From an uncultured Thermoplasmatales archaeon (lineage in GTDB: Archaea > Thermoplasmatota > E2 > UBA202 > DSCA01), in assembly GCA_964414415.1 (NCBI GenBank), contig CAYPWJ010000001.1, forward strand, positions 74,701 through 138,700: a DNA stretch of 64,000 bases. The letters are read 5' to 3'. Position 1 is the stretch's first letter. Each line of letters opens with the position of its first letter. The translations under genes and the position numbers were made by a program. This document shows, piece by piece, positions 3,371 to 35,178 of this stretch. The notes under the pieces are model-generated. The model did no database searches. It was not told the origin of the DNA and worked only from the letters and a program-made list of their open reading frames with translations.

Positions 3371-4702
3371 CCTGTCGAGCGTCTTCTGAACGATTTCAGG
3401 CGCGGCACCGATGTATGCAGCCGCATCGAGCGTCTCTCTGACGCCGTCTTCATCCAGCCGCGAGCGAACCGCATTGTTCTCCATGAGGACCTCCCGTAGA
3501 TGTCGGTCGCTCTCAATCGCCTCGAGGGAGCACCGGCGCAGCAGCTCGTGGGCCTCCTGCCGTCCCATCCCGTGGTCGACAAGCCGGAGCATGACCGCCT
3601 CGGCGAGCGGCAGCCCCTTGCTTCGCTCCAGGTTTTCCTTCATCCGTTCGGGGCGTACCTCGAGGTTGGCGAAGACACGATGCATCCGGAAGAGTATCCA
3701 GTCGGTGAGCACCAATGCGTGCGGGATGACGAAGCGCTCCGACGACGAATTGCAGAGGTCACGCTCGTGCCACTGCACCGCGTTCTCCCAGGCCGGCGGC
3801 AGCTGCGCTCTGACCATCCGGGCGAGGCCACATATCTGCTCGCAGGCGATGGGGTTCTTCTTGTGCGGCATCGTCGACGAGCCCACCTGCTTCGCCCCGA
3901 ATGACTCGGCTGCCTCGCCGATCTCGGTGCGCTGCAGGTTCCGTATCTCCGTCGCAAATTTTTCCAGGGAGGCAGCTATGTTGGCCAGCACGGACAGCAT
4001 CCCGATGTACCGATCCCGGCCCACGATCTGCGTGGCCGGTAGCTCAGCCTCGAGGCCGAGCTCCTCCATCACCCGCTGCTGCAGTTCAAAAAACCGCTCG
4101 GCAAAGCCGGCGCCGGTGCCAACCGCACCGGCCATCTTGCCCACCGCCACGTCACGTCGTGCCGCCGCGACACGCCGGAGATGACGGCTGACCTCTGCAG
4201 CGTAGACCGCCATCTTCAGGCCGAACGTTATCGGCAGCGCCGCCTGCCCATGCGTCCGCCCCAGCATGACCGTGTCGCGGTGCTCGTCAGCCAGATCCAT
4301 CAGCGTTCGCTGCAGCTCCCTGAGGTCATCCATGACGAGGTCGAGCGCCGCCGTCATCTGCAGCGCATTGGCGGAATCCACGATGTCGTAGGAGGTGGCA
4401 CCGAGATGCACGTAGCTGCCCGCGTCGCCGTCGCACTGTTCCGCCAGCGCCTTCACCATCGCCATCACGTCGTGATGTATCTCGCGTTCTATCTCCCGGA
4501 CCCGGTCGACCTCGACATGTTCAAGCGACGCCTTCCGGGATATCTCCTCGGCAGCCTCACCGGGGATGTTGCCCAGCGCTGCATGGGCCCGGGCGAGCGC
4601 AGCCTCGACCTGCAGCTGGTAGCTGAGGCGTCCCTTCTCGCTGAATATCTCTTTCATGGCGTTGCGGCCGTAGCGGTAGTCAAGCGGGCAGACGTTGCTC
4701 AT
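3347..4702 (-). CDS. purB: Adenylosuccinate lyase
   Basis: 451 aa. N-terminal CPLDYRYG signature, fumarate-lyase family motifs (GATSYDIVD, GSSTMPHKKNP). Confidence 0.9.
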   Translation of the reverse strand: MSNVCPLDYRYGRNAMKEIFSEKGRLSYQLQVEAALARAHAALGNIPGEAAEEISRKASLEHVEVDRVREIEREIHHDVMAMVKALAEQCDGDAGSYVHLGATSYDIVDSANALQMTAALDLVMDDLRELQRTLMDLADEHRDTVMLGRTHGQAALPITFGLKMAVYAAEVSRHLRRVAAARRDVAVGKMAGAVGTGAGFAERFFELQQRVMEELGLEAELPATQIVGRDRYIGMLSVLANIAASLEKFATEIRNLQRTEIGEAAESFGAKQVGSSTMPHKKNPIACEQICGLARMVRAQLPPAWENAVQWHERDLCNSSSERFVIPHALVLTDWILFRMHRVFANLEVRPERMKENLERSKGLPLAEAVMLRLVDHGMGRQEAHELLRRCSLEAIESDRHLREVLMENNAVRSRLDEDGVRETLDAAAYIGAAPEIVQKTLDRLSEDIEE

Positions 4703-4765
4703 GGCATGACATCCGGCTTGGATTATAATTCATTTTTGGCTTCTTGGCCTCGCCATGCCGATAAA

Positions 4766-4883
4766 TGCGGGCGCCGGGATTTGAACCCGGGTAATAGCCT
4801 GTTTGCGCCCCTTCCTTTGCGATGTAACGCTTTTAAAGGGTTACCTGGCAAGGCTATGTGATACCAATCTACACTACACCCGC
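4766..4883 (-). tRNA. Intron-containing tRNA. Best fold is tRNA-Gly(GCC) with a 44/45-nt intron. An alternative 1-nt-shifted fold gives Trp(CCA).
   Basis: Acceptor GCGGGTG/CGCCCGC (with G-U). T arm CCGGG-TTCAAAT-CCCGG. Discriminator A. Anticodon stem TAGCC/GGCTA with loop UUGCCAG gives U33, anticodon GCC and A37. Loop nucleotides UUGC can pair with intron GCAA, leaving a 3-nt bulge AC|A, which is consistent with a BHB splice motif. The CCA reading requires G33 and a 2-nt 26-spacer. Confidence 0.6.
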
Positions 4884-5003
4884 GGTGTGCAGCCTGTAAA
4901 TGGCATGTCCATCCAAATACTTTGCGGTTCAGGTGGATTCGCTGCCGGCGGCGGACGGCATACCACAACGTTTTTATAACGTCGCCGCTATTCATCGACC
5001 GCA

Positions 5004-5074
5004 GGGAATGGGGTTAAAAAAATGAAAACCATTTCATTTTTTGCCTCCCAACCTCCCCCCATTCCCGCTTTTTA
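5004..5074 (+). other. Nested inverted repeats (GGGAATGGGG...CCCCATTCCC with inner AATGAAA...TTTCATT) followed by a T5 tract. Possible small structured RNA or terminator.
   Basis: Seen directly in the sequence. Lies in a 320-bp AT-rich intergenic region between the tRNA at 4883 and the small gene at 5201. A TATA-like TTTTTATAAC sits about 35 nt upstream. Confidence 0.3.
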
Positions 5075-5200
5075 CTCCGTGCTCTGTTTACTCCATACTC
5101 TGTGATGACTTGTTTGGTATCTGTCGGACCCGGTAGCGTTTTCTTGCAGACAAAAATTTTATAATTGTTAACTCCATTGTGTGGTAGGAGGTGAAAAGAC

Positions 5201-5392
5201 GTGTTAGACAACGACGTATACAACCTGATGGAACAGCTGCTCGAGGAGAGCAAGAGTCTCTGGCAGATAAAACACCACTACAAGGAGGATGCGGCCGACT
5301 GCGATGAATGCCGCCGCTTCTGGGAGCAGCTGGAAGAGGACAAGGAGCAGCACATCGAGGACCTAGAGCAGCTGCTCCGAAGCCACCTGTAG
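5201..5392 (+). CDS. Small acidic coiled-coil protein with a CxxC pair (hypothetical, 63 aa)
   Basis: GTG start preceded by GGAGGTG (spacing about 8 nt). No overlapping ORF. A pyrimidine/T-rich stretch follows the stop. Confidence 0.55.
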   Translation: MLDNDVYNLMEQLLEESKSLWQIKHHYKEDAADCDECRRFWEQLEEDKEQHIEDLEQLLRSHL

Positions 5393-5426
5393 CGCCTTTC
5401 CCTCTTTTCTTTTTCCCTCGGGAACA

Positions 5427-5436
5427 TTTTTATGTA
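5427..5436 (+). promoter_or_regulatory. TATA box (TTTTATGTAG) for ligA. The ATG lies 22 nt downstream of the box, a leaderless-type spacing.
   Basis: Position relative to ATG 5458. Confidence 0.4.
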
Positions 5437-5457
5437 GCATCTGGTTTTTGACCCAGT

Positions 5458-7497
5458 ATGGTCGAGCTACCGGCAGACGAAAAAAAACGCCTCCGCGCTC
5501 TCTCCAGGGATGAGGCAGCAAAAAAAATCGAGGAGCTCCGCGACGACATCCGCCACCACAACTACCTCTACTACGTCAAAAACGAGCCCGAGATATCCGA
5601 CGCGCAATACGATAAACTCGTCAAGAAGCTGGAGCTGCTTGAAGACGAATGGCCGGAGATGGTGACCGAGGACTCACCCACCCAGCGGGTCGGTGCTCCA
5701 CCTGTCGATGAGTTTCCAACAGTCGAGCACGTCAGGCCCATGCTCTCGCTCGACACCGCGGACGAGGAAGAAGTCCAGGCGTTTCACGAGCGCGTGCAAC
5801 GCGAGCTCGGCGTCGACGAGGTGGCATATGCACTTGAGCCCAAGCTCGACGGCCTCAGCATCGAGGTTATCTACCGCAACGGCTCCTACGAGCGTGGTGC
5901 CACCCGCGGCGACGGTGTCAACGGCGAGGACGTCAGCAACAACATCAAGACCATCCGGGCGGTGCCCCTCCGGCTGCACGGCGACGCCGACGACCTGCCC
6001 GATATGCTGGCCGTCCGCGGCGAGGTCATCATGCACATCGATGCTTTCGAGGCATACAACAAGGAACTGATCCAGGAGGGCGAGGAACCGATGGCGAATC
6101 CGCGCAACGCCGCCGCTGGCTCGCTGCGGCTGCTCGACCCCAGCAAGACAGCGGAGCGACCGCTGGATGTCTTTTTCTACGAGATCATGAACTACGAGGA
6201 CATCGACCTGGACACCCAGGCCGAGGCCCTTGAGCTGCTCGAGCGGCTGGGGCTCAAAACCAATCCGCTGGCTGAGGTGCATACGAGCGTTGAAGACCTC
6301 CACGCCTACCACGACGAGATGGAAGCGCGGCGGGAGGACCTCAGCTACGAGATAGACGGCGTGGTCATCAAGGTCAATCGCTTTGATTTCCAGGAGCAGA
6401 TGGGCACCAAGACCCGGAGCCCCCGGTGGGCCGTCGCCTACAAGTTCCCGCCGCGCCGCGAGGAGACCCAGATACGGGACATCACGGTCCAGGTCGGCCG
6501 GACGGGCATCCTGACGCCGCTGGCGCTGCTCAAGCCCGTCGACGTGCAGGGCGTAACGGTATCGAGGGCCAGCCTGCACAACCTGGACTATGTGAGAGAA
6601 AAGGACATCCGGATCGGCGACTGGGTGAAGGTCGTCCGAGCCGGCGACGTCATCCCTGAGGTGCTGGAGCCCATCGAGGAGGAGCGGAGCGGCGACGAAG
6701 AACGATTTGAGATGCCGCAGCAGTGCCCTGTGTGCGGCAGCACCGTCGTCAAGGATGGCGCCTACTACCGCTGCTCCGGCGGGCTGAGCTGTCCGGCGCA
6801 GCTCAAAAAAAGCATCGAGCACTTCGGCTCAAAGGGCGCGCTTGACATCGAGGGCCTCGGCGAGCAGACCGTCGCGCTGCTCGTCGACGAAGGCCTGGTC
6901 GAGCGGGTCAGCGATCTCTACCGCCTGGATGTCGACGACCTGACCGGGCTGCCGCGCTTTGCCGAGACCTCGGCTGCAAACCTCGTCCAGGCGATCCGGG
7001 GGAGCACGGAGCAGCCGCTCGACCGGGTCATCTACGCGCTGGGCATCCCGCACGTCGGGCGGCATATGGCCCACGTCCTGTCGGAGCAATTCGGCAGCAT
7101 GGATGCATTGATGCATGCCTCGCGGGAGGATCTCCGCGATGTCAGGGAGGTCGGGCCGGAGATAGCGCACAGCGTCGTCGACTTCTTCAGCGAGGAACGC
7201 AACCTGGAGGAGATCGAACGGCTGCGTGAGCACGGGGTCACGATGGAGTATGAGCCGGCGACCGGCGCCTTGGAGGGCCTGACGTTCGTGTTCACCGGCT
7301 CCCTGGACAATTATACCCGGGGCGAGGTGAAGGAGCTCGTGGGGCGGGAGGGCGGCCGTGCGGTGTCCAGCGTGAGCAACAGGGTTGACTACGTCGTCGT
7401 CGGCGCGGATCCCGGCTCGAAGCTTGACAGGGCGCGGGAGCTCGACGTCGAGGTCATCGACGAGGCGGCGTTTGAGGAGCTCCTGGGCGACACATAA
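5458..7497 (+). CDS. ligA: NAD+-dependent DNA ligase (bacterial LigA type; full domain set)
   Basis: 679 aa. N-terminal Ia domain (HNYLYYV...ISDAQYD), adenylation KxDG (EPKLDGLSIEV), OB fold, Cys4 zinc finger (CPVCGS...CSGGLSCPAQ), HhH repeats and a C-terminal BRCT domain. Confidence 0.9.
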   Translation: MVELPADEKKRLRALSRDEAAKKIEELRDDIRHHNYLYYVKNEPEISDAQYDKLVKKLELLEDEWPEMVTEDSPTQRVGAPPVDEFPTVEHVRPMLSLDTADEEEVQAFHERVQRELGVDEVAYALEPKLDGLSIEVIYRNGSYERGATRGDGVNGEDVSNNIKTIRAVPLRLHGDADDLPDMLAVRGEVIMHIDAFEAYNKELIQEGEEPMANPRNAAAGSLRLLDPSKTAERPLDVFFYEIMNYEDIDLDTQAEALELLERLGLKTNPLAEVHTSVEDLHAYHDEMEARREDLSYEIDGVVIKVNRFDFQEQMGTKTRSPRWAVAYKFPPRREETQIRDITVQVGRTGILTPLALLKPVDVQGVTVSRASLHNLDYVREKDIRIGDWVKVVRAGDVIPEVLEPIEEERSGDEERFEMPQQCPVCGSTVVKDGAYYRCSGGLSCPAQLKKSIEHFGSKGALDIEGLGEQTVALLVDEGLVERVSDLYRLDVDDLTGLPRFAETSAANLVQAIRGSTEQPLDRVIYALGIPHVGRHMAHVLSEQFGSMDALMHASREDLRDVREVGPEIAHSVVDFFSEERNLEEIERLREHGVTMEYEPATGALEGLTFVFTGSLDNYTRGEVKELVGREGGRAVSSVSNRVDYVVVGADPGSKLDRARELDVEVIDEAAFEELLGDT

Positions 7498-7932
7498 TCG
7501 CCGGGTATATAAAGGAGTCTCGGAAATCCTTAACTCTATCGCCCGCGGAGGGGTGCCTCGAGCTCCAGATTGAGGCTCTCAACGGGGATGACACGTCACA
7601 GGTGGAGATGGCGCGGGAGTCCGTCAAGCGCGTCGAGGCGGTCATCAACATCGTCGAAAAAAGGCGAGATACACGAGTAAGCCTGTCGGGGCGACGGGTG
7701 CCTCGGATGCCAGCAGACATCTTTCGACGGTGCCTGTAGTTGGACCTGCTTTTCCATGCTTCCAGTCCCTGCTCCGTGGCGCGTTGCGGAAAATAGATAT
7801 ATTTTAAAAATGCTGTTTGTTTCCGCATTGGCGAGCCGTGAGCGTGAAACGGACGGAGATGTACAGCTGCCGCTCCTGTACCAGGAAAACCATGAAACGA
7901 GGGATTGAACCAAAAATGGAGAATAATACGTT

Positions 7933-9258
7933 TTGACCATGGAATGGAGGTTGACGTCCCGGTCTCCACCAAAGGCATTGCTTGTCGTCGTCGTGGCAGC
8001 TCTGGGCCTCTACCTGATGTGGATATGGCGTCCACTGGGCCTGTTTCATTCCTGGAATGAGGCGTACTACATGATGCGCGTCGCACATATCGCTCGGGGT
8101 GGAAGCTATTTTGACTGGGGGTTTGACAATCCGCCATTGTTTGTATATGTGCTGACTGTGCTCTCCAGGCTACGTCTCAACCTGGTCTTTTTTCGGTTGT
8201 TCATCGTTTTCTGTACGCTCATCACCACCTGCGGGGTCTACGAATTGGGATCCGTCTTTGCAGATAAAAAAACAGGGATGGCGGCGGCTATCCTCTACGC
8301 GTTTTTTCCGTTGACCGTTGTATTCAGTAAAAAACTGCAGATTGACATGTTCGGCGTCATGTTGATGACGCTGTCTTTTTATTTTGCTGTCATAGGCGTA
8401 AAGCAAAAACGGTCATGGCTTCATCTCTCGGGCGTGTTGCTCGGCCTCGCCGTTCTAACGAAATTTCCATTTGGACTGGTGGCGATTCCCATCCTGTATT
8501 ACCTCTATAGAAAAGACGTCGGATGGAAACGGATTCTTTTCACGTTGTCCGAGGGCGCCCTCGTCGCGTCGCTGTGGGCCGGATACGTTGTGATGACACG
8601 CCCCTCGTTTTTCGACGAACGAGTCTCGTCGTCCTCCAATTTCTTTGGCTTCGGGGCCATGCACGCCGGGGCTCCTCTCTACCAGCTGGCGATGGTGGCG
8701 ACTGCAGTGCTGACGCTGGCATTGTTGCTTGCGCTGTTTTTTCGGAGGCAGCCGGCGAACGTCGAAGAGAGAACCCTCGGTGTGTTTTCCATCGTCTATG
8801 CGCTCTTTTTCATGGTGCTCCCTAACCATGAATACTACCTGCTGCCGCTGCTGGTGCCATTGTTCGTCTACGTGGCCCTGAAATGGCAGAGGGGGCAGTG
8901 GCGGAAGATAGCTATTGGTTTCCTGCTGGTTTCTCTTCTCCTGCTGGCCTGTCGGCCGGTCTACGAAGTAAACTGGCGGCGGACGACGAACTATATCGAA
9001 ACGAGATACGCTGCAGAAAACATAACGGTGTATGCCTCCAACCCCCGTGCGGCGGGATATTATCTCCATCGCAATGTCACGTTACTCACCTCTCGTGTGG
9101 ATGACGGTTTCCCGCCCAATGCCGTTGTAGCGTTCACCTGCTACGACGTCGCCAACCTGAAAGCTGTTCATCTCTGGGAACCCATCCAGGAGCAGCTGGT
9201 GCTGCTGAAGCAGTGGGACGACAAAATGTTCATCTATGGAGGCGAAGCGCTGCCATGA
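7933..9258 (+). CDS. Polytopic membrane glycosyltransferase, GT39/GT83 (PMT/ArnT-like) family
   Basis: 441 aa. About 11 predicted TM helices with a DxxE-like loop. Directly upstream of a Dpm1-like GT2 gene, the classic donor-synthase/transferase pair. Confidence 0.7.
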   Translation: MTMEWRLTSRSPPKALLVVVVAALGLYLMWIWRPLGLFHSWNEAYYMMRVAHIARGGSYFDWGFDNPPLFVYVLTVLSRLRLNLVFFRLFIVFCTLITTCGVYELGSVFADKKTGMAAAILYAFFPLTVVFSKKLQIDMFGVMLMTLSFYFAVIGVKQKRSWLHLSGVLLGLAVLTKFPFGLVAIPILYYLYRKDVGWKRILFTLSEGALVASLWAGYVVMTRPSFFDERVSSSSNFFGFGAMHAGAPLYQLAMVATAVLTLALLLALFFRRQPANVEERTLGVFSIVYALFFMVLPNHEYYLLPLLVPLFVYVALKWQRGQWRKIAIGFLLVSLLLLACRPVYEVNWRRTTNYIETRYAAENITVYASNPRAAGYYLHRNVTLLTSRVDDGFPPNAVVAFTCYDVANLKAVHLWEPIQEQLVLLKQWDDKMFIYGGEALP

Positions 9259-16592: not shown

Positions 16593-17654
16593 TCAGACAT
16601 GGGTCAGCAGCCAGTGGATGACGGGAAGCCGTTCGAAGATTTCCATATGTTTAGCCTTGGCGAGTTTGACGCGGAATCCTTTATACGACCATCCGCTTTC
16701 TAATCCGTCTTCATCCACTGCTTTAACCTTTATGCTTTTAGTTTCTCCTATGTCACCTATTTCGTCGTAGGTATGGGACAGCGTGACGGTGGCACCGCTT
16801 TCGAAAGGTCCATAGGTGGTGTTGGTCTCATTCTCCCAGTCCCATTGGACGATGAGGGTAATTTTATCATCATTTGGGTCATATACATGGGCCTGTAGCT
16901 TGTATTCCTTTCTCCATTTGACTGTGTCGTTTCCCTGTAGTATTGGTTCATAGGGCGGATAGTCCTTTTCTACTTCGTTTACTGGTCCAAAAAACATATT
17001 ATCAAACCGTAGTTCAACCTCTGGTGAAGGCAATTGATCCCTGCTGCTCTTCCAGCCTATTTCTAAATTAACATATCTGCTAGTCTCTTCGAAATAAAAA
17101 TTCCTATCGTTAGGGTCGCTACAATTAAACTCTACATACTTCCACTCATTATAAGGCGGAGTTATCTCTATAATTTTTGCATTCCCTCCATTCCATATAT
17201 CATTTTCTCTATACTCCGCGGCACATATAATAATCCGGGTGTCACTAGGGTTACCAGTAATTTTGTACCAGAAACCAACATGATAATACTTGTTGGGTTC
17301 TATCTTTATCTTTGAAGCGGTATTTGGCCACCAACCATTAAAAGCATGATTATCCAAATTGGTTATCCCTGCGGATTTACTACCCGAATGGGCATATTTA
17401 GAATCCCAAAGAGGCTTGGTTTCACCCATTCCATCAAAAAGCCATCTTGCAGGTTTATCATCAGAGCCAAATTCAAACGAAGGATTTTCAATGAGATTCG
17501 TGCCATTCAAGCTGCTCGGGGCGCATTTACTCTCCATCGATGCCCCGGTAAACGTTCCACCTGGCTTGTCTGCCGGCTGGATGGCTGCAATCGGCACAGC
17601 CAGCAGAGCGACTATCAGAAAGCAGATGACCACTCTGGAGGGTATCCATCTCAT
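16593..17654 (-). CDS. Secreted protein with a CBM/jelly-roll-like domain and a C-terminal PKD/Big-like domain, encoded in a low-GC islet
   Basis: Start at MRWIPSRVVICFLIVALLAVPIAA (M139 of the track ORF, signal peptide). By eye about 45% GC with A/T-ending codons, against about 65% in the flanks. Confidence 0.6.
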   Translation of the reverse strand: MRWIPSRVVICFLIVALLAVPIAAIQPADKPGGTFTGASMESKCAPSSLNGTNLIENPSFEFGSDDKPARWLFDGMGETKPLWDSKYAHSGSKSAGITNLDNHAFNGWWPNTASKIKIEPNKYYHVGFWYKITGNPSDTRIIICAAEYRENDIWNGGNAKIIEITPPYNEWKYVEFNCSDPNDRNFYFEETSRYVNLEIGWKSSRDQLPSPEVELRFDNMFFGPVNEVEKDYPPYEPILQGNDTVKWRKEYKLQAHVYDPNDDKITLIVQWDWENETNTTYGPFESGATVTLSHTYDEIGDIGETKSIKVKAVDEDGLESGWSYKGFRVKLAKAKHMEIFERLPVIHWLLTHV

Positions 17655-17806
17655 TTTATTTGCCTCTAAACCACAAAATGGTATATCGTTCATAAACCCA
17701 TCGAAAATGTAGCTTCCTTTTAAGATGTAATCTAAAGGCTTTCCGTATATCGTTCCTTCGGAAAGAGTACGCGAGGGTTTGCCAGAGACTCGCTCTATTC
17801 CCGGTT

Positions 17807-18223
17807 TCAGTATGAAGCCAGATACGGCTGCAGCGTCACGCGGAGCTCTTCTGGGTCGCGGAGCCCGGACATCGTGACCGCGGTGCCGTCGCCGTGGACG
17901 GTGACGTCCGTGTAGCCCAGCAGCGCTCCGGCGTAGCCCCGGCTGACCTCCAGGCCGGTGACGTCGGGGAGCGACAGGTCGCTGTGTTCCATGCGGAGGA
18001 GAAACGCGTAGTGTTCCTCCGCCCTGATGACCCGCTGGGTGGTGACGAGATACCGGACGCGTATCCATTTCACCGCGGCGTAGACGATGAAGAAAAGGCC
18101 CAGGCCGTAGAGCAGCAGCGTCGCACAGCCGAGCAGCCAGAAGAGCCAGAGCGACCGCAGCGATACCCGCCGCCAGAGGATGCGCTCGCCTGGGTGGAAA
18201 TGAAGACGGGTCTGCAGCGCCAT
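17807..18223 (-). CDS. Bacterial-PH-like (bPH_2/YdbT-type) membrane-flanked domain protein
   Basis: 138 aa. Two N-terminal TM helices then a PH-like domain. The start overlaps the upstream DUF63 stop in TGATG, indicating translational coupling. It is the C-terminal segment of the artefactually long track ORF 17807..19483. Confidence 0.6.
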   Translation of the reverse strand: MALQTRLHFHPGERILWRRVSLRSLWLFWLLGCATLLLYGLGLFFIVYAAVKWIRVRYLVTTQRVIRAEEHYAFLLRMEHSDLSLPDVTGLEVSRGYAGALLGYTDVTVHGDGTAVTMSGLRDPEELRVTLQPYLASY

Positions 18224-25900: not shown

Positions 25901-26024
25901 TGATGTCCTGCCGGTACGGCATGTCCACGGGCTGCCCAGCGGCTGGCTGCACCAGTTCGCCGGGCCAGACCGGGGCGAGCAGGATCATGCTGACGATGAG
26001 GATAAACGCGCCTTTCCGGAGCAC
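22926..26024 (-). CDS. Large surface protein (1032 aa): signal peptide, repeated carboxypeptidase-regulatory/transthyretin-like beta-sandwich domains, C-terminal polytopic (about 8 TM) membrane domain
   Basis: N-terminal MLRKGAFILIVSMILLAPVWP. Several roughly 80-aa Ig-like repeats. A hydrophobic C-terminal third. Confidence 0.6.
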   Translation of the reverse strand: MLRKGAFILIVSMILLAPVWPGELVQPAAGQPVDMPYRQDITLPELTEEMTGQPVDIRVRFRQPCWAADIRNHAVRVLYDDGTGSVELECQIYDLERTDAAHISACKLVFLLRGPGDYTLAYDSSETAAPGYEDHVSVAEGSYFYEPVPGYSIDLDYYSIHDDGSLVYGVGQRGDFFGIDMAQKVIKQLPGRQRFEVQNWGQLASYAFFWYEGRDRGTDEKLLSKQIMVDGPLMTRVGIRSSSRGGKVETTAYYTYYHSPGSEKRLLTSVTHHVRERCRIDGLTNEDGVYAYLLTVKARSSSIDRLNLGEIPPYLHVNTEDHIVHEYRLDQNPESTDYKWLLDTQDDIDVGSPAWVSIDSGDSGTAYALLFNTTSPAPALPGMQVRAVGRQEVSVPGLEVDGGGISLGRNAYERGGSHDLTIPAGFTATFTSAFYATQQDGVTAVKREVTAFEQLKECRLCSGTGITGQAGERHRLSVTTHLAPSLPLAPALSLITGRQLPATTVELWRNGTMVSSGVASRIPLDVGAPLGLDLGNASLFKTAVFPRVAAGFYVVKVKGGLDGRRYIGTKAIELTGDMSTRVICRLEGILRVAMRDQHGDGIEGIDIRLLSQDATVASNVTGSDGTAALRAPMPAAYTLQARHRGFVLHEQQIRLPHPGGVALTAAFHSLDVTIRDTLGMPPGVQLQPVLTSGEMVTSTLLTGEQRSNGCYRFERLPAASYTLRVRYKSFTLERDVEIPGSHVTVTFPAAYQLEVACRNSRGMRQDCSIAITRNGHQIEATELPPGSYHIVARSGGDVVGERDVFVTAATSVDLVTAKQPLYPLLGTVIVIAAAGAMVYLLRRRLTLQRAAYLAAAVLLLVAPLHTWWQLHGGSDGLDVASSVYLLPAKMVTLGSDTGYMGGDIAGLPSLFAAMGTVVAALTLAAGVLLVLHLLYLERWRWLPLLALLAASLAVALFTVGMSMAAAVVTGSLWGSGRVALALPGIGSARVAASWMPALGFWLAVAGIAVLLSGARGVIARGLRWLHGRIPTF

Positions 26025-26079
26025 GACCGTTCATCCCCAGGGCGCTATAAGTGCTTTGTGGGATTTTTGTGGAAATAAT

Positions 26080-26132
26080 TTAACGCTACATTTTCACATT
26101 TTTTTTCTGTTTCCGGCAAAATGTAGCGGTAA
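26080..26132. repeat. 15-bp inverted repeat TTAACGCTACATTTT / AAAATGTAGCGgTAA (1 mismatch) separated by 23 nt. A third copy, TTTTGTAGCGTTAAG, lies at 26245-26259.
   Basis: Direct observation at the left edge of low-GC islet 2, immediately downstream of the RM gene. Confidence 0.5.
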
Positions 26133-26295
26133 CCATCACAAACGGCAAAAACAGCGATGCTCCTCATGACAGCGCCCCTTTTTCGAGACAAAACACCCCG
26201 ATATTTTTAGTTCTACATTTAACTATAAAAACCATATTTTACTATTTTGTAGCGTTAAGTACGGAGGGAAGGAAGGCGGCGATTATTCCGGCGCT

Positions 26296-29200
26296 TCAAA
26301 ACCTGTCGAGGAAGGTGTCGATGACGGCGATGTCGTCCTCGCTTTCTATGTTGTAGAGGTCGAACACCGTCTGGTTGAGTTTGTCTTCCAGTTCTGCAAC
26401 TGTCGGCATGTCTCTGAGTTTCCCGATGTCTTGGTCGTGCATCTCTAAAATCTGCTGTACCAACTCATTGTTCACTGGCACTCGGATGATTATCTCTTCT
26501 TCCTTCGACAGTTTTTTCCCGTTGAGCGTCCGGGCAATGTATTCATATTTTTCGTCCGTGTTGATACGGTAGTCGTCGATGTAGTCGTCTTTTCCCAGCT
26601 TTATTTTCTTTCCTTCATCGAGGCCGGTCTGGATGGATATGGATGCCTCGCGGTAATAACGCTTTGTTGTATGCCGTATCTCGAAGAATTCGTCCACTAC
26701 ATCTTTTTTCCGTAGCGCTGAGAAGTACGGTGTGGGAAACATGTCGATTTTGCGTTTCAACTCCTCGATGCCGACTATCTGTTCTGCCACTTCTTTAATC
26801 TCTTCTAGGAAATCGAGTTCCCCATCTTTTTCTGCTGTTTTGATTGGCAGGAGCTTGATATAGGCGTCTGCGTAGGAATACGACTTCCCCGCATAGATGG
26901 TGCTTATGTGCTTTAGATAAAAGTCTAGCAAACTCGAATTCAACAGGCCAGTTAAGTAAAATGGAAATTGCTTCTCAGATTTTAGCAGAATCCCATAAAT
27001 TCCTCCGCCCTTTCCTCCGCCCTGAAACACATACTTTGCCTCATTGTCGTAGCAGTAATCACCTTCCTGAGAATTGAGTTGAACAAGTATTTTCTTTTTG
27101 TCATATTTGTCCTTGCTTCGGGGGTACCCCATCCCGTACCATTTATGCTCTTGGTTTTTCCCTCTCCTGAATTTGCCGCCCTCGCGGCTTCTCAAATCAT
27201 CTTCTATGCTCTCAAGATAACTCCACCCCTTCGGATACAAGTCCTCGATATAGGTGTCGCCGTAGTCAAACTTGCCCTCATATTCCTTGGATGGAATCAG
27301 CTTGTATTTCTCCTCGCCGTCGATTACATACTGTTGATAGGGGAAGAGCACATACCACCCCTTCCAGTCAATACGCCAGCGTTCGACATCCTTGCCGAAA
27401 AGAAAAGGCCGTACCAGCCCTTTCTCCACCTCAACGGGGTCGCCACCGCCCTTTGGCCGGGCGACAATAGTGTCTTCCCTCTCTTCTATCAGTTGTAGCA
27501 CATAGAAGTCATCTTTGCTAGTTGAAACCCCTTGAAATCCTCCGCTTTTAGTTTTGGTGAAATCCTGTAAAAGACTGCATCCCTCTTCTATCTGGCTGAA
27601 AACCTTCCATTCATTTGGGGGCATCAGGTACCAGCCCTGGGCGCGGAGGTTGTCGTACGGGAAATAAAACGCATCCGAGAAGTCGCCGACGACGTGGCTG
27701 TCCCCGTTTTCCAATTGTTCAAAGCAATGTTCGACATCTGCTAGCAGCTCTTCCCCATCATCACTGTCCCTGAATACACGTGCAACCGGAAAGCGGTGCT
27801 GCCGTCGTGGTCCCTTCGAAAACACGAAAATCGCCGGGTAATTCAAGGCGTCCTCGAACACGCGGCTGTCCTTCATGTCCAGCAGCTTGTCTATCTGCGC
27901 CTGCTCGGGCAGCCCGGCACGCATCGGCTTGCCATAGTTGGTGAGCAAAAACCGGTTCGAGACGATGTAGCTCAGTTTCCCCGCATGGCCGCCCTTTATC
28001 CACTTCAATCCTCGCTCGATAAACGGAACAAAGATGTCATAGTTACCCTTTGCCCAGTCATAGCAGCCCGACCATCTATTCTTCTGTTTCTCCGGTATAT
28101 CCTGAATCCGAACGTAGGGAGGATTACCAACCACGAAGTCGTAGTCAACAAAGTTTTTCAACAACGCTGCCAGCAGCACATCCTCAATCGACTTCACCAG
28201 CCGTCCGTCCTCAAAGTCACTTTTCAGAAGTTTTATCTTCTCCAACAGGTCATAGGCGTAGTCCTCGAAAAACTCGGCCAGCAGGCTCCATTTCTTGTCC
28301 ACGAGGTAATGACGCAGGTTTCTTTCAAGTCGGTCAAGGTTCACCGACTCTCGCTCCTCAACTGCGTCACGTTTCACAGTGTCAAATACCGCCTGCAGCG
28401 CACCGAAGTATTCCTCTGTCCGCTGGATATCTGTATGTTCACGGACGGTTATGATGTCAGGGATACGGAAGTCATCTTCGAAAAACGTTCCCTCGTCGCC
28501 CTGCACCGGCAGTTCGATGGACATGGTAAACGTCTTCCCGACGCCAAAGTCAGTTATCTTCATCCGCCCGCTCTGCTGTTCCATCGCTAGGGAATCCGTC
28601 CGAAAGATCGGCAGCCGCTTTAACACAAAGCCCGGGTCTTCTTCCTTCGCCTTCCGATAGGTTGGGAGCAACGCGAGCGTGAACTGCACCTGCGCCATGA
28701 TGGTGGCAAACGGGTGGATGTCAAAGCCGACGATGTGATACCGGTTGCATAGCTCGTCAAGCACCTTCCCCCATCCATGCTGTTCTGCCTTACGCTTTGC
28801 ACCGTCCAGATACCGTTTCAACGCCTCGACGAGAAACGTACCTGAGCCGCAGGCGGGATCCAGCAGCCGTCTGTCGACCGTCTGCTCGCCGGTGTAGCCG
28901 ACGGAATCCAAGATATAGTCAACTACTTCCATCGGTGTATAGAATTCACCGAGCGCCTTCCTCGTCTCAGTATCGAAATAACGCTGGTAGAGGATACCCA
29001 GCGGGTCGCCCTCGACGCGCGAGAAATCAAACTTGTAGATGGCGAGCAGCAGCTTCGCAACGTTTTTTCCAAATGTCGACATCTGCAGAGTGGTATCGCT
29101 AAAGAACTGCTGGTAGCTACGCCGGTCAAATTCCTCTGTCCACCAGTAAAAAATATCCTCCTCGAACACAGACGCAATGAGCTTCTCTTGCATATCTCTG

Positions 29201-30174
29201 ATGATCTGAGTAGCGATTTTCGGATAAGACGACTGAGCGATATCTACATCCGACCGAGAGGCGCGGCGCACCTCATTCTCAAGCAAATCAGAGAAATGAG
29301 CGTCAGGGAAACCGTAGTCCTCGCATGACTTCGTCAGGATAAGCCGCATAAAAAGAGCGAATGCTGTCTCCAGAGCAAACGTCATCAGGTATCTGTCCTC
29401 CTTTTTTCCGGGGGACAGCCCGGCTTTCTCAAAAACATGCGCCCAGTGATCCGGCACCTGGCTCTTTGTCAGCGACTTTGCATAGGAGCGCTTCCAGAAC
29501 TCGTAGGCGCTTTTGGTAAAACGCGAGGTTTCCCTGCTCTGCTCAAACAGATTTATGATCGAGGAGACAAGCTCGGAAAACAGAGAGTCCTCCTTGAGCC
29601 TGAAGCTTTCATAAAAATGCCCTCGAGATGTTTCTGTATCAAGCGATAGCCGTTCCTCGGCGGGCTTGAACTTGTCGATATACGTCAGCACATTGTCAAT
29701 TTTGGTCGTGCCGTAGTCAGGCTTCGAGAGCAGCCGTATGCCCTCACTTACCATCTCTTCGTCTATCTCCGACATGCCTCCGGAGATGTCGTTTCTCCGC
29801 AAAAGCCGCTTCTGCTGCCGTTCATAGAAAATAAGCTCCCGTCCATTGTAGAGAAGACCATAGTCTGCCTTTAGCTCATCGACATATTTTTCCTTCAGAT
29901 CATCTTCAAAATACCCGAGGTCGTCCACTCCTGGCTTTTTAAATTCGATGACAAAGACGATATCTCCAAACTCGTCGGTGCAATGGATATCGGTCCGCTT
30001 GCCTGTTGCGATGCGTTCCTCAAAGAAGATGTCGTTTTTCTCATATCCAAGATTTTCCAGGATTTCTTTTTTAGAAAATTTTATCCGAAGTGTTTCCTCG
30101 TTCATCTCCGGGTTATCCTCCACCTCCTGCCATAAATCACGTAACGCTTCAAATATGTCACCTACCTTTGACAT
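26296..30174 (-). CDS. Type IIG (Eco57I/MmeI-like) single-chain restriction-modification enzyme: N-terminal PD-(D/E)xK nuclease, gamma-class N6-adenine methyltransferase, C-terminal target-recognition domain
   Basis: 1292 aa. Nuclease motif D...FVIEFKK. MTase motif X GEFYTP, motif I LDPACGSGTFLV, motif IV VVGNPPYV. TRD with the LLNSSLLDFYL signature. By eye about 46% GC. Confidence 0.8.
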   Translation of the reverse strand: MSKVGDIFEALRDLWQEVEDNPEMNEETLRIKFSKKEILENLGYEKNDIFFEERIATGKRTDIHCTDEFGDIVFVIEFKKPGVDDLGYFEDDLKEKYVDELKADYGLLYNGRELIFYERQQKRLLRRNDISGGMSEIDEEMVSEGIRLLSKPDYGTTKIDNVLTYIDKFKPAEERLSLDTETSRGHFYESFRLKEDSLFSELVSSIINLFEQSRETSRFTKSAYEFWKRSYAKSLTKSQVPDHWAHVFEKAGLSPGKKEDRYLMTFALETAFALFMRLILTKSCEDYGFPDAHFSDLLENEVRRASRSDVDIAQSSYPKIATQIIRDMQEKLIASVFEEDIFYWWTEEFDRRSYQQFFSDTTLQMSTFGKNVAKLLLAIYKFDFSRVEGDPLGILYQRYFDTETRKALGEFYTPMEVVDYILDSVGYTGEQTVDRRLLDPACGSGTFLVEALKRYLDGAKRKAEQHGWGKVLDELCNRYHIVGFDIHPFATIMAQVQFTLALLPTYRKAKEEDPGFVLKRLPIFRTDSLAMEQQSGRMKITDFGVGKTFTMSIELPVQGDEGTFFEDDFRIPDIITVREHTDIQRTEEYFGALQAVFDTVKRDAVEERESVNLDRLERNLRHYLVDKKWSLLAEFFEDYAYDLLEKIKLLKSDFEDGRLVKSIEDVLLAALLKNFVDYDFVVGNPPYVRIQDIPEKQKNRWSGCYDWAKGNYDIFVPFIERGLKWIKGGHAGKLSYIVSNRFLLTNYGKPMRAGLPEQAQIDKLLDMKDSRVFEDALNYPAIFVFSKGPRRQHRFPVARVFRDSDDGEELLADVEHCFEQLENGDSHVVGDFSDAFYFPYDNLRAQGWYLMPPNEWKVFSQIEEGCSLLQDFTKTKSGGFQGVSTSKDDFYVLQLIEEREDTIVARPKGGGDPVEVEKGLVRPFLFGKDVERWRIDWKGWYVLFPYQQYVIDGEEKYKLIPSKEYEGKFDYGDTYIEDLYPKGWSYLESIEDDLRSREGGKFRRGKNQEHKWYGMGYPRSKDKYDKKKILVQLNSQEGDYCYDNEAKYVFQGGGKGGGIYGILLKSEKQFPFYLTGLLNSSLLDFYLKHISTIYAGKSYSYADAYIKLLPIKTAEKDGELDFLEEIKEVAEQIVGIEELKRKIDMFPTPYFSALRKKDVVDEFFEIRHTTKRYYREASISIQTGLDEGKKIKLGKDDYIDDYRINTDEKYEYIARTLNGKKLSKEEEIIIRVPVNNELVQQILEMHDQDIGKLRDMPTVAELEDKLNQTVFDLYNIESEDDIAVIDTFLDRF

Positions 30175-30175
30175 G

Positions 30176-30838
30176 CTATTCCTCTATTTTCTCAAAGGAA
30201 TCCACGGTGAAATTTTCCCCGAAATCGGCTCCGTTGAACCGATATTTGTTACCGGCCAGTTTTACGTCGAGAAGACAGTCGAGGTCCTCGTCGTCCATCT
30301 CCTTCGCCATCTCCAAATCTATATCGGTTAATCTTTCAGCTACCTCGCCATTTGCCACCATCACCTTGCTGGTGGAATCAAGAGCAACCTTTATCCGGAA
30401 ATCCTCGACCGGCTCCACGTCCAGATGGACGGGACAGTGGTCGTTCACTAAGACCCGGTTGCATTCGGGGCATCGCTCGATATAGCCGCTCTTCGGCACA
30501 ATCCTCGTAACGTGCCCCTCTATCCCACCGTTGTCTCCAGCCTCTATCTCTTCATCCAGCTTTGTTATCTTTGTTCGAGAGTTAAGATTGACTTGAGACT
30601 GTTCATTCCATACATCCACCACGACGCCCTTGAAAAGATAGCTTTCTCCTTCTTGGAGCTCCGGCAACTGTGATTTTTTCCATGAGACAAACTTGAGTTT
30701 ACCGGTCTCATCGCCGAGCAACCCCACCTGGGCGATAGCATCCGAGCGTGGCTCCCAAAGCTGGAGAACCTTCGCTTTTAGAGACACCCATTCCCCTTCC
30801 TCTGTTAATTCTTCGATTTTTCGCATCTCCGCTGACAT
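30176..30838 (-). CDS. RPA-like single-stranded-DNA-binding protein: one OB fold plus a CxxC...CxxH zinc ribbon and an acidic tail
   Basis: 220 aa. OB-fold hallmark VSLKAKVLQLWEP...GLLGDETGKLKFVSWKK...GESYLFKGVVVDVWN. Zinc ribbon CPECNRVLVNDHCPVH. The stop codon is 1 nt from the RM gene start, indicating an operon. A/T-ending codon usage as in the RM gene. Confidence 0.65.
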   Translation of the reverse strand: MSAEMRKIEELTEEGEWVSLKAKVLQLWEPRSDAIAQVGLLGDETGKLKFVSWKKSQLPELQEGESYLFKGVVVDVWNEQSQVNLNSRTKITKLDEEIEAGDNGGIEGHVTRIVPKSGYIERCPECNRVLVNDHCPVHLDVEPVEDFRIKVALDSTSKVMVANGEVAERLTDIDLEMAKEMDDEDLDCLLDVKLAGNKYRFNGADFGENFTVDSFEKIEE

Positions 30839-30928
30839 ACCTATTTTCCCCTATCCAATTCTACAAATGCCGAGGCAATAATAAATTTTGCTTTCGATGC
30901 AGCATCTTCTAGAAACTTCCAAAATGTG

Positions 30929-31519
30929 CTATTGCCCCTGTTTTTTGAAGTTCAGGACGGTGTCGTGGACGATGTGGTCGTAGTGGTGGAGGTCCGTCTG
31001 GATGCGCCGGCTGAGGGTGAAGCCCACGTCCCTGGCTGCCTGGACGGCGACATCATTGTCCATGTGCCGGAGGTAGACCGACAGCAGGCCGTCAGGGGTC
31101 AACACCCGGCCTATCTCGCCGAGCAGCTGCCGTCGCCTGTCAGGCGTAAAAAAATCACTGTGCAAGACATCATATATCAGGGCAGCGTCCATCGCGGCAT
31201 CGTCAAACGGCAGCGTCAGCGAGCCCGCCGTCTCCATTATCTCAACGTTGCCGACCCCGTAGGTCTCCAGCCGCCCGCGCAGCGACTCCAGTTTCCCGTG
31301 GTCGCGGTCAAGCGCATAGACGACGCCCGACGGTGCGACCAGCATCGCCGCCGGCAGGACATACATCCCCGTGCCGCAGCCGAAATCCAGCACCCGGTCA
31401 CCCGACCGGAGGCCGACCTCCAGCAGCATCCGCGCGCCCAGGCCGTCAAGCCAGCGCCTGCCGTCCTCGTTCATCACCGATGTATCACCACGACGGTTAA
31501 AACATGTTTCCCCGACCAT
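30929..31519 (-). CDS. Class I SAM-dependent methyltransferase
   Basis: Start at MVGETCF (M37 of the track ORF). Motif I VLDFGCGTG, motif post-I VYALD. High GC again. Confidence 0.7.
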   Translation of the reverse strand: MVGETCFNRRGDTSVMNEDGRRWLDGLGARMLLEVGLRSGDRVLDFGCGTGMYVLPAAMLVAPSGVVYALDRDHGKLESLRGRLETYGVGNVEIMETAGSLTLPFDDAAMDAALIYDVLHSDFFTPDRRRQLLGEIGRVLTPDGLLSVYLRHMDNDVAVQAARDVGFTLSRRIQTDLHHYDHIVHDTVLNFKKQGQ

Positions 31520-33554: not shown

Positions 33555-33825
33555 GTCACGTCAAACCCAGCGGGCTTTTTAACTGTTGCTCCCACATCCA
33601 CGCCGCCATAGAACAGCGGCGGTTATCCCCGGCAGCGGAGACACCGCCCGCACCGGGGGCAGCGCAGTGCATCATCGGCGGAATTGTAGCCGCAGCGGTC
33701 GCAGACCATGCAGCCACAACGGGCAGGGCATGTAAAAACAGATGCGGGGGCCGCCACGCAGGCTTTTAAATTTTGCGTCAGCACCAGCAAGCAGGTCCCG
33801 TTATCTTTCGGGCGAGAGCAAAATG

Positions 33826-34077
33826 TTATAGGGTACCTATGACGTAGCGGGCTATGAATCCCATGAATAGAGCGTATGAAAAATTGACGACTGTTCCCAC
33901 AAGATAATATTGCGGGTTTTTGGTTATTTCTTTCGTTCGTACCAGAGCCTTCGCTGTGAAGATGATAGACAAAGCGAGGAATTCATTTGCCACAACAAGA
34001 GATATCACAATAAAGTTTTCGCAGATTCCGATGACGAATCCTATATCTCCAAGCTGTGCGCTTACCCTCCCACCCAC
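33826..34077 (-). CDS. Small 3-TM membrane protein (83 aa), in low-GC islet 3
   Basis: Hydrophobic. A/T-ending codon usage like the neighbouring gene. Paired with a SatD-like gene. Confidence 0.45.
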   Translation of the reverse strand: MGGRVSAQLGDIGFVIGICENFIVISLVVANEFLALSIIFTAKALVRTKEITKNPQYYLVGTVVNFSYALFMGFIARYVIGTL

Positions 34078-34155
34078 GTATTGACGTATTGAACTACATT
34101 TCTTACCAGTATCGTGCTACTTGCAAATGTGAACACATAGATGCCGGCCAATACG

Positions 34156-34863
34156 CTAAGGAGTATGCTTTCGTTCATGCTTTGTGTACCTTATCAGTAG
34201 CTCGTTTATCAATTTTTCAGCATCTCTGATTTCTTTCCAATGTGCCCCTCGTAAGGCCTTTGAGACTGCCTGTTGCGTAATATGTTGTTTTTGTGCGACT
34301 GCCTTCTGTTTGCCCAGCTTCTCGTAGCTGTCTATGATGTCCTTTTTTCCCTTCCAGTGACTATATTTTATGATAGCCGTTAAATTTGCGATAGTGGTGA
34401 TTTCCCTGTCTAATGATTTTTGTCCCAAATCAAAATAAAAATAATCGAACGGCTTTTTTGTGTTCCGTACCGTCTGTCTGGCCTTCGTTTTTAATTTTTC
34501 CAGATAGCTATCGGCCCGTTTAAATGCTACTCCATCTATTTGGGATGCATTTCTGGTCTCCAAAGCGACATCCAGCTTCCCAAAAACAGCCGCAAATCTA
34601 ATTTTAAAGGGAAGCATATGCTCCTGGATTTCTCTCATTACATCATACGTGGTTTCGATGTTCTTTAGAACACCTGCTATCTCATCGCCTTTGACCACCA
34701 TACATTTTGCAAATAATTTATCCTCAAATTTTTTGTTCGTTGCTTCTACTGAATGGGCAAGTTTTCTTCCATATCTGTTCCGATTCTTTATTTTTGCTGA
34801 TCCTATGACGTCTCCGACAATCGTCACGAATTTTTTATCCATATTTTTTGTTAATTGCATCAT
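34156..34863 (-). CDS. SatD-like protein with a C-terminal sigma-70-region-4-type helix-turn-helix
   Basis: 235 aa, lysine-rich. N-terminal VTIVGDVIGSAKI motif. C-terminal ITQQAVSKALRGAHWKEIRD HTH. By eye about 35% GC. Confidence 0.5.
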   Translation of the reverse strand: MMQLTKNMDKKFVTIVGDVIGSAKIKNRNRYGRKLAHSVEATNKKFEDKLFAKCMVVKGDEIAGVLKNIETTYDVMREIQEHMLPFKIRFAAVFGKLDVALETRNASQIDGVAFKRADSYLEKLKTKARQTVRNTKKPFDYFYFDLGQKSLDREITTIANLTAIIKYSHWKGKKDIIDSYEKLGKQKAVAQKQHITQQAVSKALRGAHWKEIRDAEKLINELLIRYTKHERKHTP

Positions 34864-34885
34864 GATATTTAAAACAATCTATTTT

Positions 34886-34981
34886 GGTTGTAAACTATAT
34901 TACAACCTTATACATTTGTTTTTTTATATACAACTTTTTAAGTTGTAAAAATGCGTATGTGCTGGCCATAGCGTGCACATA
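34886..34981. repeat. Three palindromes in 96 bp upstream of the SatD-like gene: GGTTGTAA-n6-TTACAACC (34886-34907), ACAACTT-TTT-AAGTTGT (34930-34946) and TATGTGC-n12-GCACATA (34956-34981)
   Basis: Direct observation. Likely operator sites or the element end. Confidence 0.5.
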
Positions 34982-34983
34982 CA

Positions 34984-35178
34984 TCACCGCTTTCTCTCCT
35001 GGTTGAGGCGGTATTCCCGATCGCCGGTCTTCACCAGGATGCCCTGCTCCTCCAGCCAGCGATCCCGCCGCCGGATATACCTGATGGAATCCCGGAGCTT
35101 CCACCGCGGCGTCGGCCGCCGTACGGCGCTGCCCTTCTCCGGTCCACGGATACGCTTATCCTGTTCATCTAGCGTCAT
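34984..35178 (-). CDS. Small basic protein (64 aa from MTLDEQDK; hypothetical)
   Basis: Minus-strand TATA TTTTTATATG (35212-35219) about 35 nt upstream of this internal ATG. The track ORF extends to 35256. No recognisable family. Confidence 0.3.
   Translation of the reverse strand: MTLDEQDKRIRGPEKGSAVRRPTPRWKLRDSIRYIRRRDRWLEEQGILVKTGDREYRLNQERKR

Follow-up and report, generated by a model that had tools for sequence, protein, structure and literature searches.

Type IIG restriction-modification (RM) enzymes are regarded as self-sufficient, and surveys of archaeal RM and defense systems define and count each of them as one gene, mentioning no RPA, SSB (a protein that binds single-stranded DNA) or oligonucleotide-binding (OB) fold partner for them (PMC12988326; PMC10609329). 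A first-pass annotation of a 64,000-nucleotide stretch from an uncultured Thermoplasmatales archaeon (GenBank assembly GCA_964414415.1, contig CAYPWJ010000001.1, positions 74,701 to 138,700; hereafter the window) noted this stand-alone habit and drew attention to a locus that departs from it. There, a gene for a 1292-amino acid (aa) Type IIG enzyme is directly preceded by one for a 220-aa protein resembling the single-stranded DNA (ssDNA)-binding protein RPA. The locus raises the question of whether the small protein is a genuine partner of the enzyme and, if so, what it might do. We find the module itself well supported by sequence comparison, which indicates a complete enzyme, a tandem-OB partner, conserved adjacency of the two genes and their co-divergence, and we propose that it is a conserved two-component form of the Type IIG system.

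Profile searches show the larger gene to encode an apparently complete Type IIG enzyme, with nuclease, methyltransferase (MTase) and target recognition domain (TRD) on a single chain and catalytic motifs intact. Pfam matched Eco57I (9e-25), N6_Mtase and MmeI_Mtase within residues 398-773 and TaqI_C at residues 923-1111, and the PADLOC profile REase_MTase_IIG matched at 7e-53. At the N-terminus, HSDR_N_2 reached 24.2 bits over residues 26-122, just below its cutoff of 25, and PF13588 is listed for most homologues of the enzyme. The motifs that the first-pass annotation had picked out are all present: FVIEFKK at residues 74-80, GEFYTP at 409-414, LDPACGSGTFLV at 438-449, NPPY at 684-687 and LLNSSLLDFY at 1077-1086. 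Motif I (LDPACGSGTF, 438-447) precedes NPPY, which is the gamma-class N6-adenine order, and the chain runs from an N-terminal PD-ExK nuclease through the MTase to a TaqI_C-like TRD (approximately residues 923-1134) and a C-terminal extension. No variation occurs among 19 homologues of 36-65% identity in the PD-ExK triad (D62, E77 and K79), in motif I (L438-F447) or in N684-P686 of NPPY, suggesting that the enzyme family keeps both activities. The family is large and mostly archaeal (1021 matches at E <1e-10). The only sequence relative of the window enzyme in the PDB is M.BseCI (7qw5), and a sequence search of that database matched no solved Type IIG structure.

The smaller gene encodes a stripped-down archaeal RPA paralogue, distinct from housekeeping RPA. 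We base this on a partial, sub-cutoff match to its nearest NCBIfam model, NF005553 'replication factor A' (216.8 bits against a cutoff of 353, covering model positions 70-295 of 311), and on an hhalign alignment with haloarchaeal RPA (E 1.7e-57, positions 69-298 of 311). Compared with PRK07217-type RPA, the protein is short of ~68 residues at the N-terminus and of a tail of ~13 residues at the C-terminus. Residues 2-101 match the OB domain of Methanosarcina mazei MM0293 (PDB 2kbn, E 9e-30), and an AlphaFold2 (AF2) model with a pLDDT of 85 contains two OB folds, one at residues ~16-93 and a Zn-bearing one at ~105-218, joined by a linker near residue 100. In the model, a zinc ribbon with ligands C123, C126, C135 and H138 lies between beta1 and beta2 of the second fold (hereafter Zn-OB), three helices lie between beta3 and beta4, and the protein ends at beta5. 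We assign the Zn-OB to the RPA70 DBD-C type. W53 and W77 of the first fold align with W56 and F79 of SsoSSB, which we take to be two of the three base-stacking aromatics of that protein. The first-pass annotation had described an RPA-type OB fold followed by a zinc ribbon. Both are there, but the ribbon lies within another OB fold that is itself complete.

Could this simply be the ordinary RPA of the organism, a check that had been proposed at the outset? Like RPA, the protein does have one OB fold and, after it, another that contains Zn. The protein nevertheless scores far below the full-length family cutoff, lacks both termini, has a composition foreign to its host and has no RPA companion gene downstream, so we answer no. 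We found no second, canonical RPA gene in the window. Homologues of the partner form a distinct ~220-aa family of 50-95% identity in Thermoplasmatota-type metagenome-assembled genomes (MAGs).

If the two proteins belong together, their genes should be found together elsewhere. In a census of loci that was a sample and not exhaustive, the pairing occurred in >12 independent contexts in MAGs of Thermoplasmata, Nanohaloarchaeota, ANME-1, Bathyarchaeia and Halobacteriota; the neighborhood survey suggested by the first-pass annotation thus bore it out, homologues of the small protein recurring directly upstream of enzyme homologues. Gaps between partner and enzyme genes in 11 other loci range from -8 to +11 nt. 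The same pair, in the same setting, is found in NCBI assembly GCA_905333555.1 (contig CAJOUV010000012.1), and a full OB plus Zn-OB partner directly precedes the enzyme in L029/L030 (82% partner and 88.5% enzyme identity to the window) and, before an enzyme homologue, in L018. More distant pairs with a full partner have partner/enzyme identities of 56/68% (L002), 55/64% (L014), 54/61% (L003) and 35/41% (L035/L036, beside Hachiman genes), and a pair of 54/65% identity (L031) sits between two integrases and adjoins an OLD-family nuclease. Eleven further matches to the Zn-OB core, and likewise P0029, pair with enzyme homologues by an equally sized longest contig. Partner and enzyme are all that these loci have in common: their flanking genes are otherwise unrelated, and often include defense genes (ThsB-TIR, PycTM, Hachiman, OLD, Csa3/Cas6 and ParE). 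Across 12 loci, pairwise identity in the Zn-OB core correlates with that in the first 500 residues of the enzyme (Mantel r = 0.98, p = 1e-4), indicating that both genes move and diverge together.

We next asked which part of the partner is retained. The conserved half is not the N-terminal OB fold, which the first-pass annotation had called canonical, but the Zn-OB, the sole part common to all partner variants; the N-terminal module varies. A profile of the Zn-OB core found 288 proteins, mostly in two size classes. Partners of 119-138 aa consist of the Zn-OB only (L032, L022, L025, L040/L041 from ANME-1 and L008 from Nanohaloarchaeota). The ~196-aa class (L037/L038, L046 and L044/L045 from Bathyarchaeia) carries a different, helical N-terminal domain ('GYGYQIHPDALKLL...'; L037 4411-5001; P0249-P0365) that weakly, though at consistent positions, resembles the N-terminus of DP1, the small subunit of PolD (NCBIfam PRK04036.1-3, E 1e-4 to 8e-4, positions 5-72); PDB 2kxe compared with this N-terminus gave an E of 0.57. 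The Zn-OB half of the class is highly conserved, and mean column identity over the whole alignment is 74%. We considered whether the variants might be deletions of one ~310-aa architecture and rejected this, as hhalign detects no homology of the N-terminus of the 196-aa form to that of haloarchaeal RPA. Lastly, two free-standing proteins of ~530 aa (P0366 and P0372) are primase large subunits (PF04104, PriL) fused to a C-terminal Zn-OB that scores 168 and 112 bits, respectively, on the RM-partner profile, and a replisome protein therefore uses the same domain type. Every module found joined to the Zn-OB is thus a replisome part, be it the RPA OB fold, the DP1-N-like domain or PriL.

Given that the modules attached to the Zn-OB are all replisome parts, we favor the view that the partner is an adaptor to ssDNA or to the fork. 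By this reading, which we hold to be somewhat more probable than all others together, the locus is a mobile Type IIG system of two components, in which a partner derived from the replisome links the enzyme to ssDNA or to intermediates of replication. The islet would have entered the archaeal chromosome by horizontal transfer. The partner would be a subunit or adaptor dedicated to the enzyme. Its DBD-C-like Zn-OB, the invariant element, would link it to the enzyme or to ssDNA, and its N-terminal replisome-derived module, here the RPA OB fold, would bind ssDNA. Together the two proteins would bring a one-TRD, probably one-strand-methylating enzyme to ssDNA at forks or in replicating invaders, and the outcome might be prompt methylation of nascent host DNA or licensing of the enzyme on replicating foreign DNA. 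From what is established for MmeI-type and Type III enzymes, one with a single MTase and a single TRD would be expected to methylate asymmetric sites in one strand only. For methylators of asymmetric sites, protection of the daughter duplexes at fork passage was called 'mostly obscure' in a 2025 review (PMC12707154). A bolder extension, which we offer as a tentative possibility, is that the module exemplifies a class of two-component Type IIG systems widespread in archaea. In these, an adaptor made of replisome parts, with a DBD-C-type Zn-OB core joined to an RPA OB fold, to a DP1-N-like domain or to no further module, would tether the RM enzyme to the fork or to ssDNA. Such a class would be the prokaryotic analogue of maintenance methylation coupled to replication and would give a concrete answer to how asymmetric-site enzymes protect daughter duplexes as the fork passes.

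Several points weigh against the adaptor reading. Contact between partner and enzyme is hypothetical, and methylation of one strand is presumed because the enzyme has a single MTase/TRD architecture. Co-divergence demonstrates that the genes are inherited together; it does not demonstrate that their products interact physically or functionally. Nearly all of the loci compared come from MAG or metagenome contigs. Two enzymes inside the clade (P0127 and P0170) and the enzymes of Halorussus plasmids (33% identity) have no partner, so the partner must be dispensable for at least some enzymes that match in length and architecture. Many partners have no N-terminal OB fold, so the essential feature must be something other than its binding of ssDNA. 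Also absent from the partner is the C-terminal helix through which canonical RPA70 DBD-C trimerizes.

That some enzymes do without a partner would suit a regulator, and a regulatory role is the first alternative to be weighed. Like a controller (C) protein or an antitoxin-like inhibitor, the partner might bind nucleic acid, be it the mRNA or the promoter of its own gene, or else the nuclease domain, and so delay or restrain cleavage while a newly arrived module methylates its host. A mobile module does face this establishment problem, and the partner gene is placed as C genes often are, being small, upstream of the enzyme gene and tightly coupled to it. Its fold is of RPA type, however, and we obtained no match to a helix-turn-helix (HTH) or other known controller fold; nor did we find a conserved operator-like repeat upstream of the module. 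In its minimal form the partner is one small Zn-binding domain, as a regulator could well be, but the repeated attachment of replisome-derived N-terminal modules is hard to reconcile with a pure expression switch. We consider a regulator unlikely, at perhaps one chance in a handful.

Some bacterial defenses monitor SSB or ssDNA, and the partner might, in a similar vein, sense invaders or extend the range of the enzyme. It would bind the ssDNA of rolling-circle plasmids, of ssDNA viruses or of intermediates in viral replication, or lure away anti-RPA factors of viruses as a decoy, and the nuclease would then be recruited or activated there. The RPA-type ssDNA-binding folds would be apt for this, and so would the defense-island surroundings of the related loci (OLD nuclease with integrases, Hachiman, ThsB-TIR, PycTM, Csa3/Cas6), yet a site-specific enzyme of double-stranded DNA with its own TRD has no obvious need of an ssDNA sensor. 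A further pointer comes from L042 (4552-4992) and L043 (4361-4801), where an enzyme homologue of 38% identity lacks the Zn-OB partner and the upstream slot, 8 nt from the enzyme start, is taken by a gene for a 146-aa EVE-domain (PF01878) protein. This replacement suggests that small nucleic acid 'reader' genes are interchangeable in the slot. We found no relatives on IMG/VR contigs or in phage records that might hint at an origin in an arms race with viruses. As the sensor idea overlaps the adaptor reading, sequence alone cannot separate them; we think it rather improbable, a shade more so than a regulator.

Plasmids and solo genes bear on the remaining alternative, that of adjacency without function. 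In Halobacteria, plasmids commonly carry RPA operons: RPA homologues occur in 163 haloarchaeal plasmid records, one Halococcus dombrowskii plasmid having 6 matching places. The plasmid RPAs of L049, L050 and L051 are full-length, are followed by a companion gene of ~190-260 aa and have no adjacent RM genes. We had considered haloarchaeal plasmid RPAs and the Halorussus plasmid enzymes as cultured, annotated examples of the module and rejected both, the former as canonical rpa-companion operons and the latter for their lack of a partner. Solo partner genes occur next to a canonical RPA operon (L001) and next to Csa3/Cas6 (L005). In L001 (1776-3828), the gene, which is of the 220-aa family, has the native GC of its Thermoplasmatales MAG (65%), is not accompanied by a Type IIG enzyme and is divergent from the adjoining canonical 430-aa RPA and companion gene; a low-GC N4/N6 DNA methyltransferase gene lies 1.6 kb downstream. 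L001 shares its contig with L015, and L016 shows the same arrangement at different coordinates. In a neighbor-joining tree of 137 columns, both solo copies branch from within the clade linked to RM genes (support 100); the tree does not settle whether all RM partners are monophyletic with respect to canonical RPAs. That the partner is merely an RPA paralogue hitch-hiking on mobile DNA, or the replication SSB of the element itself, is strongly disfavored and in our judgment very improbable, for although RPA paralogues are common on haloarchaeal plasmids and solo copies exist, those on plasmids keep their full length and canonical companion and lack the RM enzyme, the solo copies fall within the RM-linked clade, the two genes alone recur, closely spaced, amid unrelated flanks, their co-divergence persists down to 35%/41% identity, and the window islet holds neither a replication initiator nor an integrase.

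Two of the related loci have additional genes. In L046, from a Halobacteriota MAG, a 446-aa protein that matches nothing in Pfam or NCBIfam (6593-7933) is encoded between the 196-aa partner and the enzyme, with a primase large-subunit gene 1.5 kb upstream; this 446-aa protein may be a third component. In L003, from a Thermoplasmata MAG, a 374-aa ORF (4549-5673) lies ~1.8 kb upstream of the pair, and its N-terminus ('...GCAGIDKQSICDF...') looks by eye like a group II intron-type reverse transcriptase.

Returning to the window, we examined how the module is built and how it may have arrived (Table 1). By the open reading frame (ORF) calls both genes are where the first-pass annotation had placed them. 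Their junction reads GAG GAA TAG-C-ATG, with GAGG 7 nt 5' of the enzyme ATG, a layout consistent with translational coupling, and we take the two genes, judged by the same layout, to be co-transcribed. Upstream of the partner, a TATA-like TTTATTAT (30885-30878, ~44 nt before the ATG) is preceded by a purine-rich GAAAGCAAAA resembling a B recognition element (BRE). Both were found by eye and are put forward only as a candidate archaeal promoter.

The segment is foreign in composition. In 500-nt windows, GC drops from 0.62-0.70 outside to 0.44-0.56 in a trough at ~26000-31000, and the gene pair has a GC of 0.497 against 0.620 in the remaining window. The first-pass annotation had spoken of A/T-ending codons. 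GC at third codon positions (GC3) is indeed lower in the two module genes (0.62 and 0.59, the latter in the partner) than in five flanking host genes (0.78-0.89; threonyl-tRNA synthetase (ThrRS), topoisomerase, DHH, S-adenosylmethionine (SAM)-dependent MTase and DUF3604), but ~60% of codons in the pair end in G or C. Since most codons of the foreign segment are still G/C-ending, the islet looks partly ameliorated towards host composition. Both GC and GC3 agree with the earlier view of the islet as horizontally acquired cargo. Its flanks are ordinary archaeal chromosome, with a ThrRS bearing an archaeal editing domain, topoisomerase IA, a DHH protein, a CarboxypepD_reg protein, a small-molecule SAM methyltransferase and DUF3604. 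As the first-pass annotation had noted, integrases and transposases are lacking; none of the tested ORFs within ~10 kb on either side has such a domain. We found no tRNA or Rfam elements that could serve as integration targets or regulators, and no target-site duplication at the islet.

Inverted repeats had been thought to mark both edges of the islet, a view that we do not find convincing. The 3' intergenic region contains a 15-nt hairpin of 93% identity (26080-26094/26118-26132) and a cluster of the motif TTAACGCTACA, three copies of which fall within 180 nt (26080 on the plus strand, 26122 and 26248-26258 on the minus strand). The window has 4 matches to this motif where 0.27 are expected, and 3 of the 4 are in the region downstream of the enzyme gene. 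The 5' edge has trivially short palindromes only, and terminal inverted or direct repeats pairing the two edges were at chance level. The 3' intergenic region, which had no Rfam match, may be a terminator structure or the relic of an insertion; as a further option, the motif could be a protein-binding site.

Table 1. The two-gene module and its intergenic regions, in positions of the window
Feature	Position	Strand	Basis
Partner gene, 220 aa	30176..30838	-	NCBIfam, hhalign, PDB 2kbn match, AF2 model
Conserved core of the partner, aa 101-220	30179..30538	-	Zn-ribbon OB fold, predicted RPA70 DBD-C type, three-helix insertion
Type IIG RM enzyme, 1292 aa	26296..30174	-	Pfam and PADLOC matches, invariant residues
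Spacer, 1 nt, between partner TAG and enzyme ATG	30175	-	Direct sequence reading
5' intergenic region, candidate archaeal promoter	30839..30925	-	By eye
3' intergenic region, AT-rich, with T-runs and TTAACGCTACA in three copies	26025..26295	-	Repeat and motif counts

Two other low-GC features lie in the same window. A separate second islet at 33750-35000 (GC 0.36-0.44), ~3 kb from the RM module, contains a SatD-family gene (34156-34863, minus strand; GC 0.39, GC3 0.41) and is probably another horizontally acquired gene. Adjoining the ThrRS gene, a 491-aa CBM_4_9 domain protein is encoded at 16593-18068 with a GC of 0.476 and a GC3 of 0.44, far under the host level.

What would follow from a genuine partner? 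Defense catalogs treat Type IIG systems as self-sufficient single genes, and a conserved partner would mean that a component has been missed. If the partner matters, the activity or toxicity of such Type IIG enzymes expressed alone in a heterologous host may mislead. The replication-protein domains make testable the idea that RM at asymmetric sites is coupled to forks or ssDNA. The case also documents the recruitment of RPA, a replication protein, into a mobile defense module, and it offers biochemistry a compact family of Zn-OB domains (119-220 aa). A dedicated helper of ssDNA-binding type for Type IIG enzymes does not appear to have been described: we found no RPA, SSB or OB-fold partner of a Type IIG enzyme in the literature searched, although absence from it is not proof of absence.

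How, then, does the module compare with known systems? The MTase region of the enzyme has a weak NCBIfam likeness to BREX-2 PglX (73.5 bits, cutoff 400) and to MAD2 (44 bits), scores far below the cutoffs of 400-900 for BREX PglX and MADS Mad2. The N-terminal PD-ExK nuclease sets the enzyme apart from the methyltransferases of BREX and MADS, and we found no BrxC, PglZ or other BREX or MADS genes in the window or in the related loci examined. Archaeal RPA of the PRK07217/NF005553 type (Haloferax Rpa3-like, ~310 aa; M. mazei MM0293, PDB 2kbn/2ken) is longer than the partner at both termini and normally precedes a companion gene, whereas the partner precedes an RM enzyme. The Zn-OB has 13-20% identity to eukaryotic RPA70 DBD-C, to the C-terminal OB of Pyrococcus abyssi Rpa1 and to OB-C of Tetrahymena Teb1. 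With the C-protein operons of Type II RM systems the module shares a small co-transcribed gene upstream of a nuclease-bearing gene in a mobile setting; C proteins are HTH transcription factors, while the partner is predicted to be a tandem OB-fold derivative of RPA. By all sequence-testable features save that of standing alone, the enzyme belongs with the Type IIG enzymes of the Eco57I, MmeI and BpuSI kind, which likewise unite a PD-ExK nuclease, a gamma-class N6-adenine MTase and a TaqI_C-like TRD on a single chain. Unlike those enzymes, which stand alone, the one described here has a conserved, co-diverging partner gene immediately upstream.

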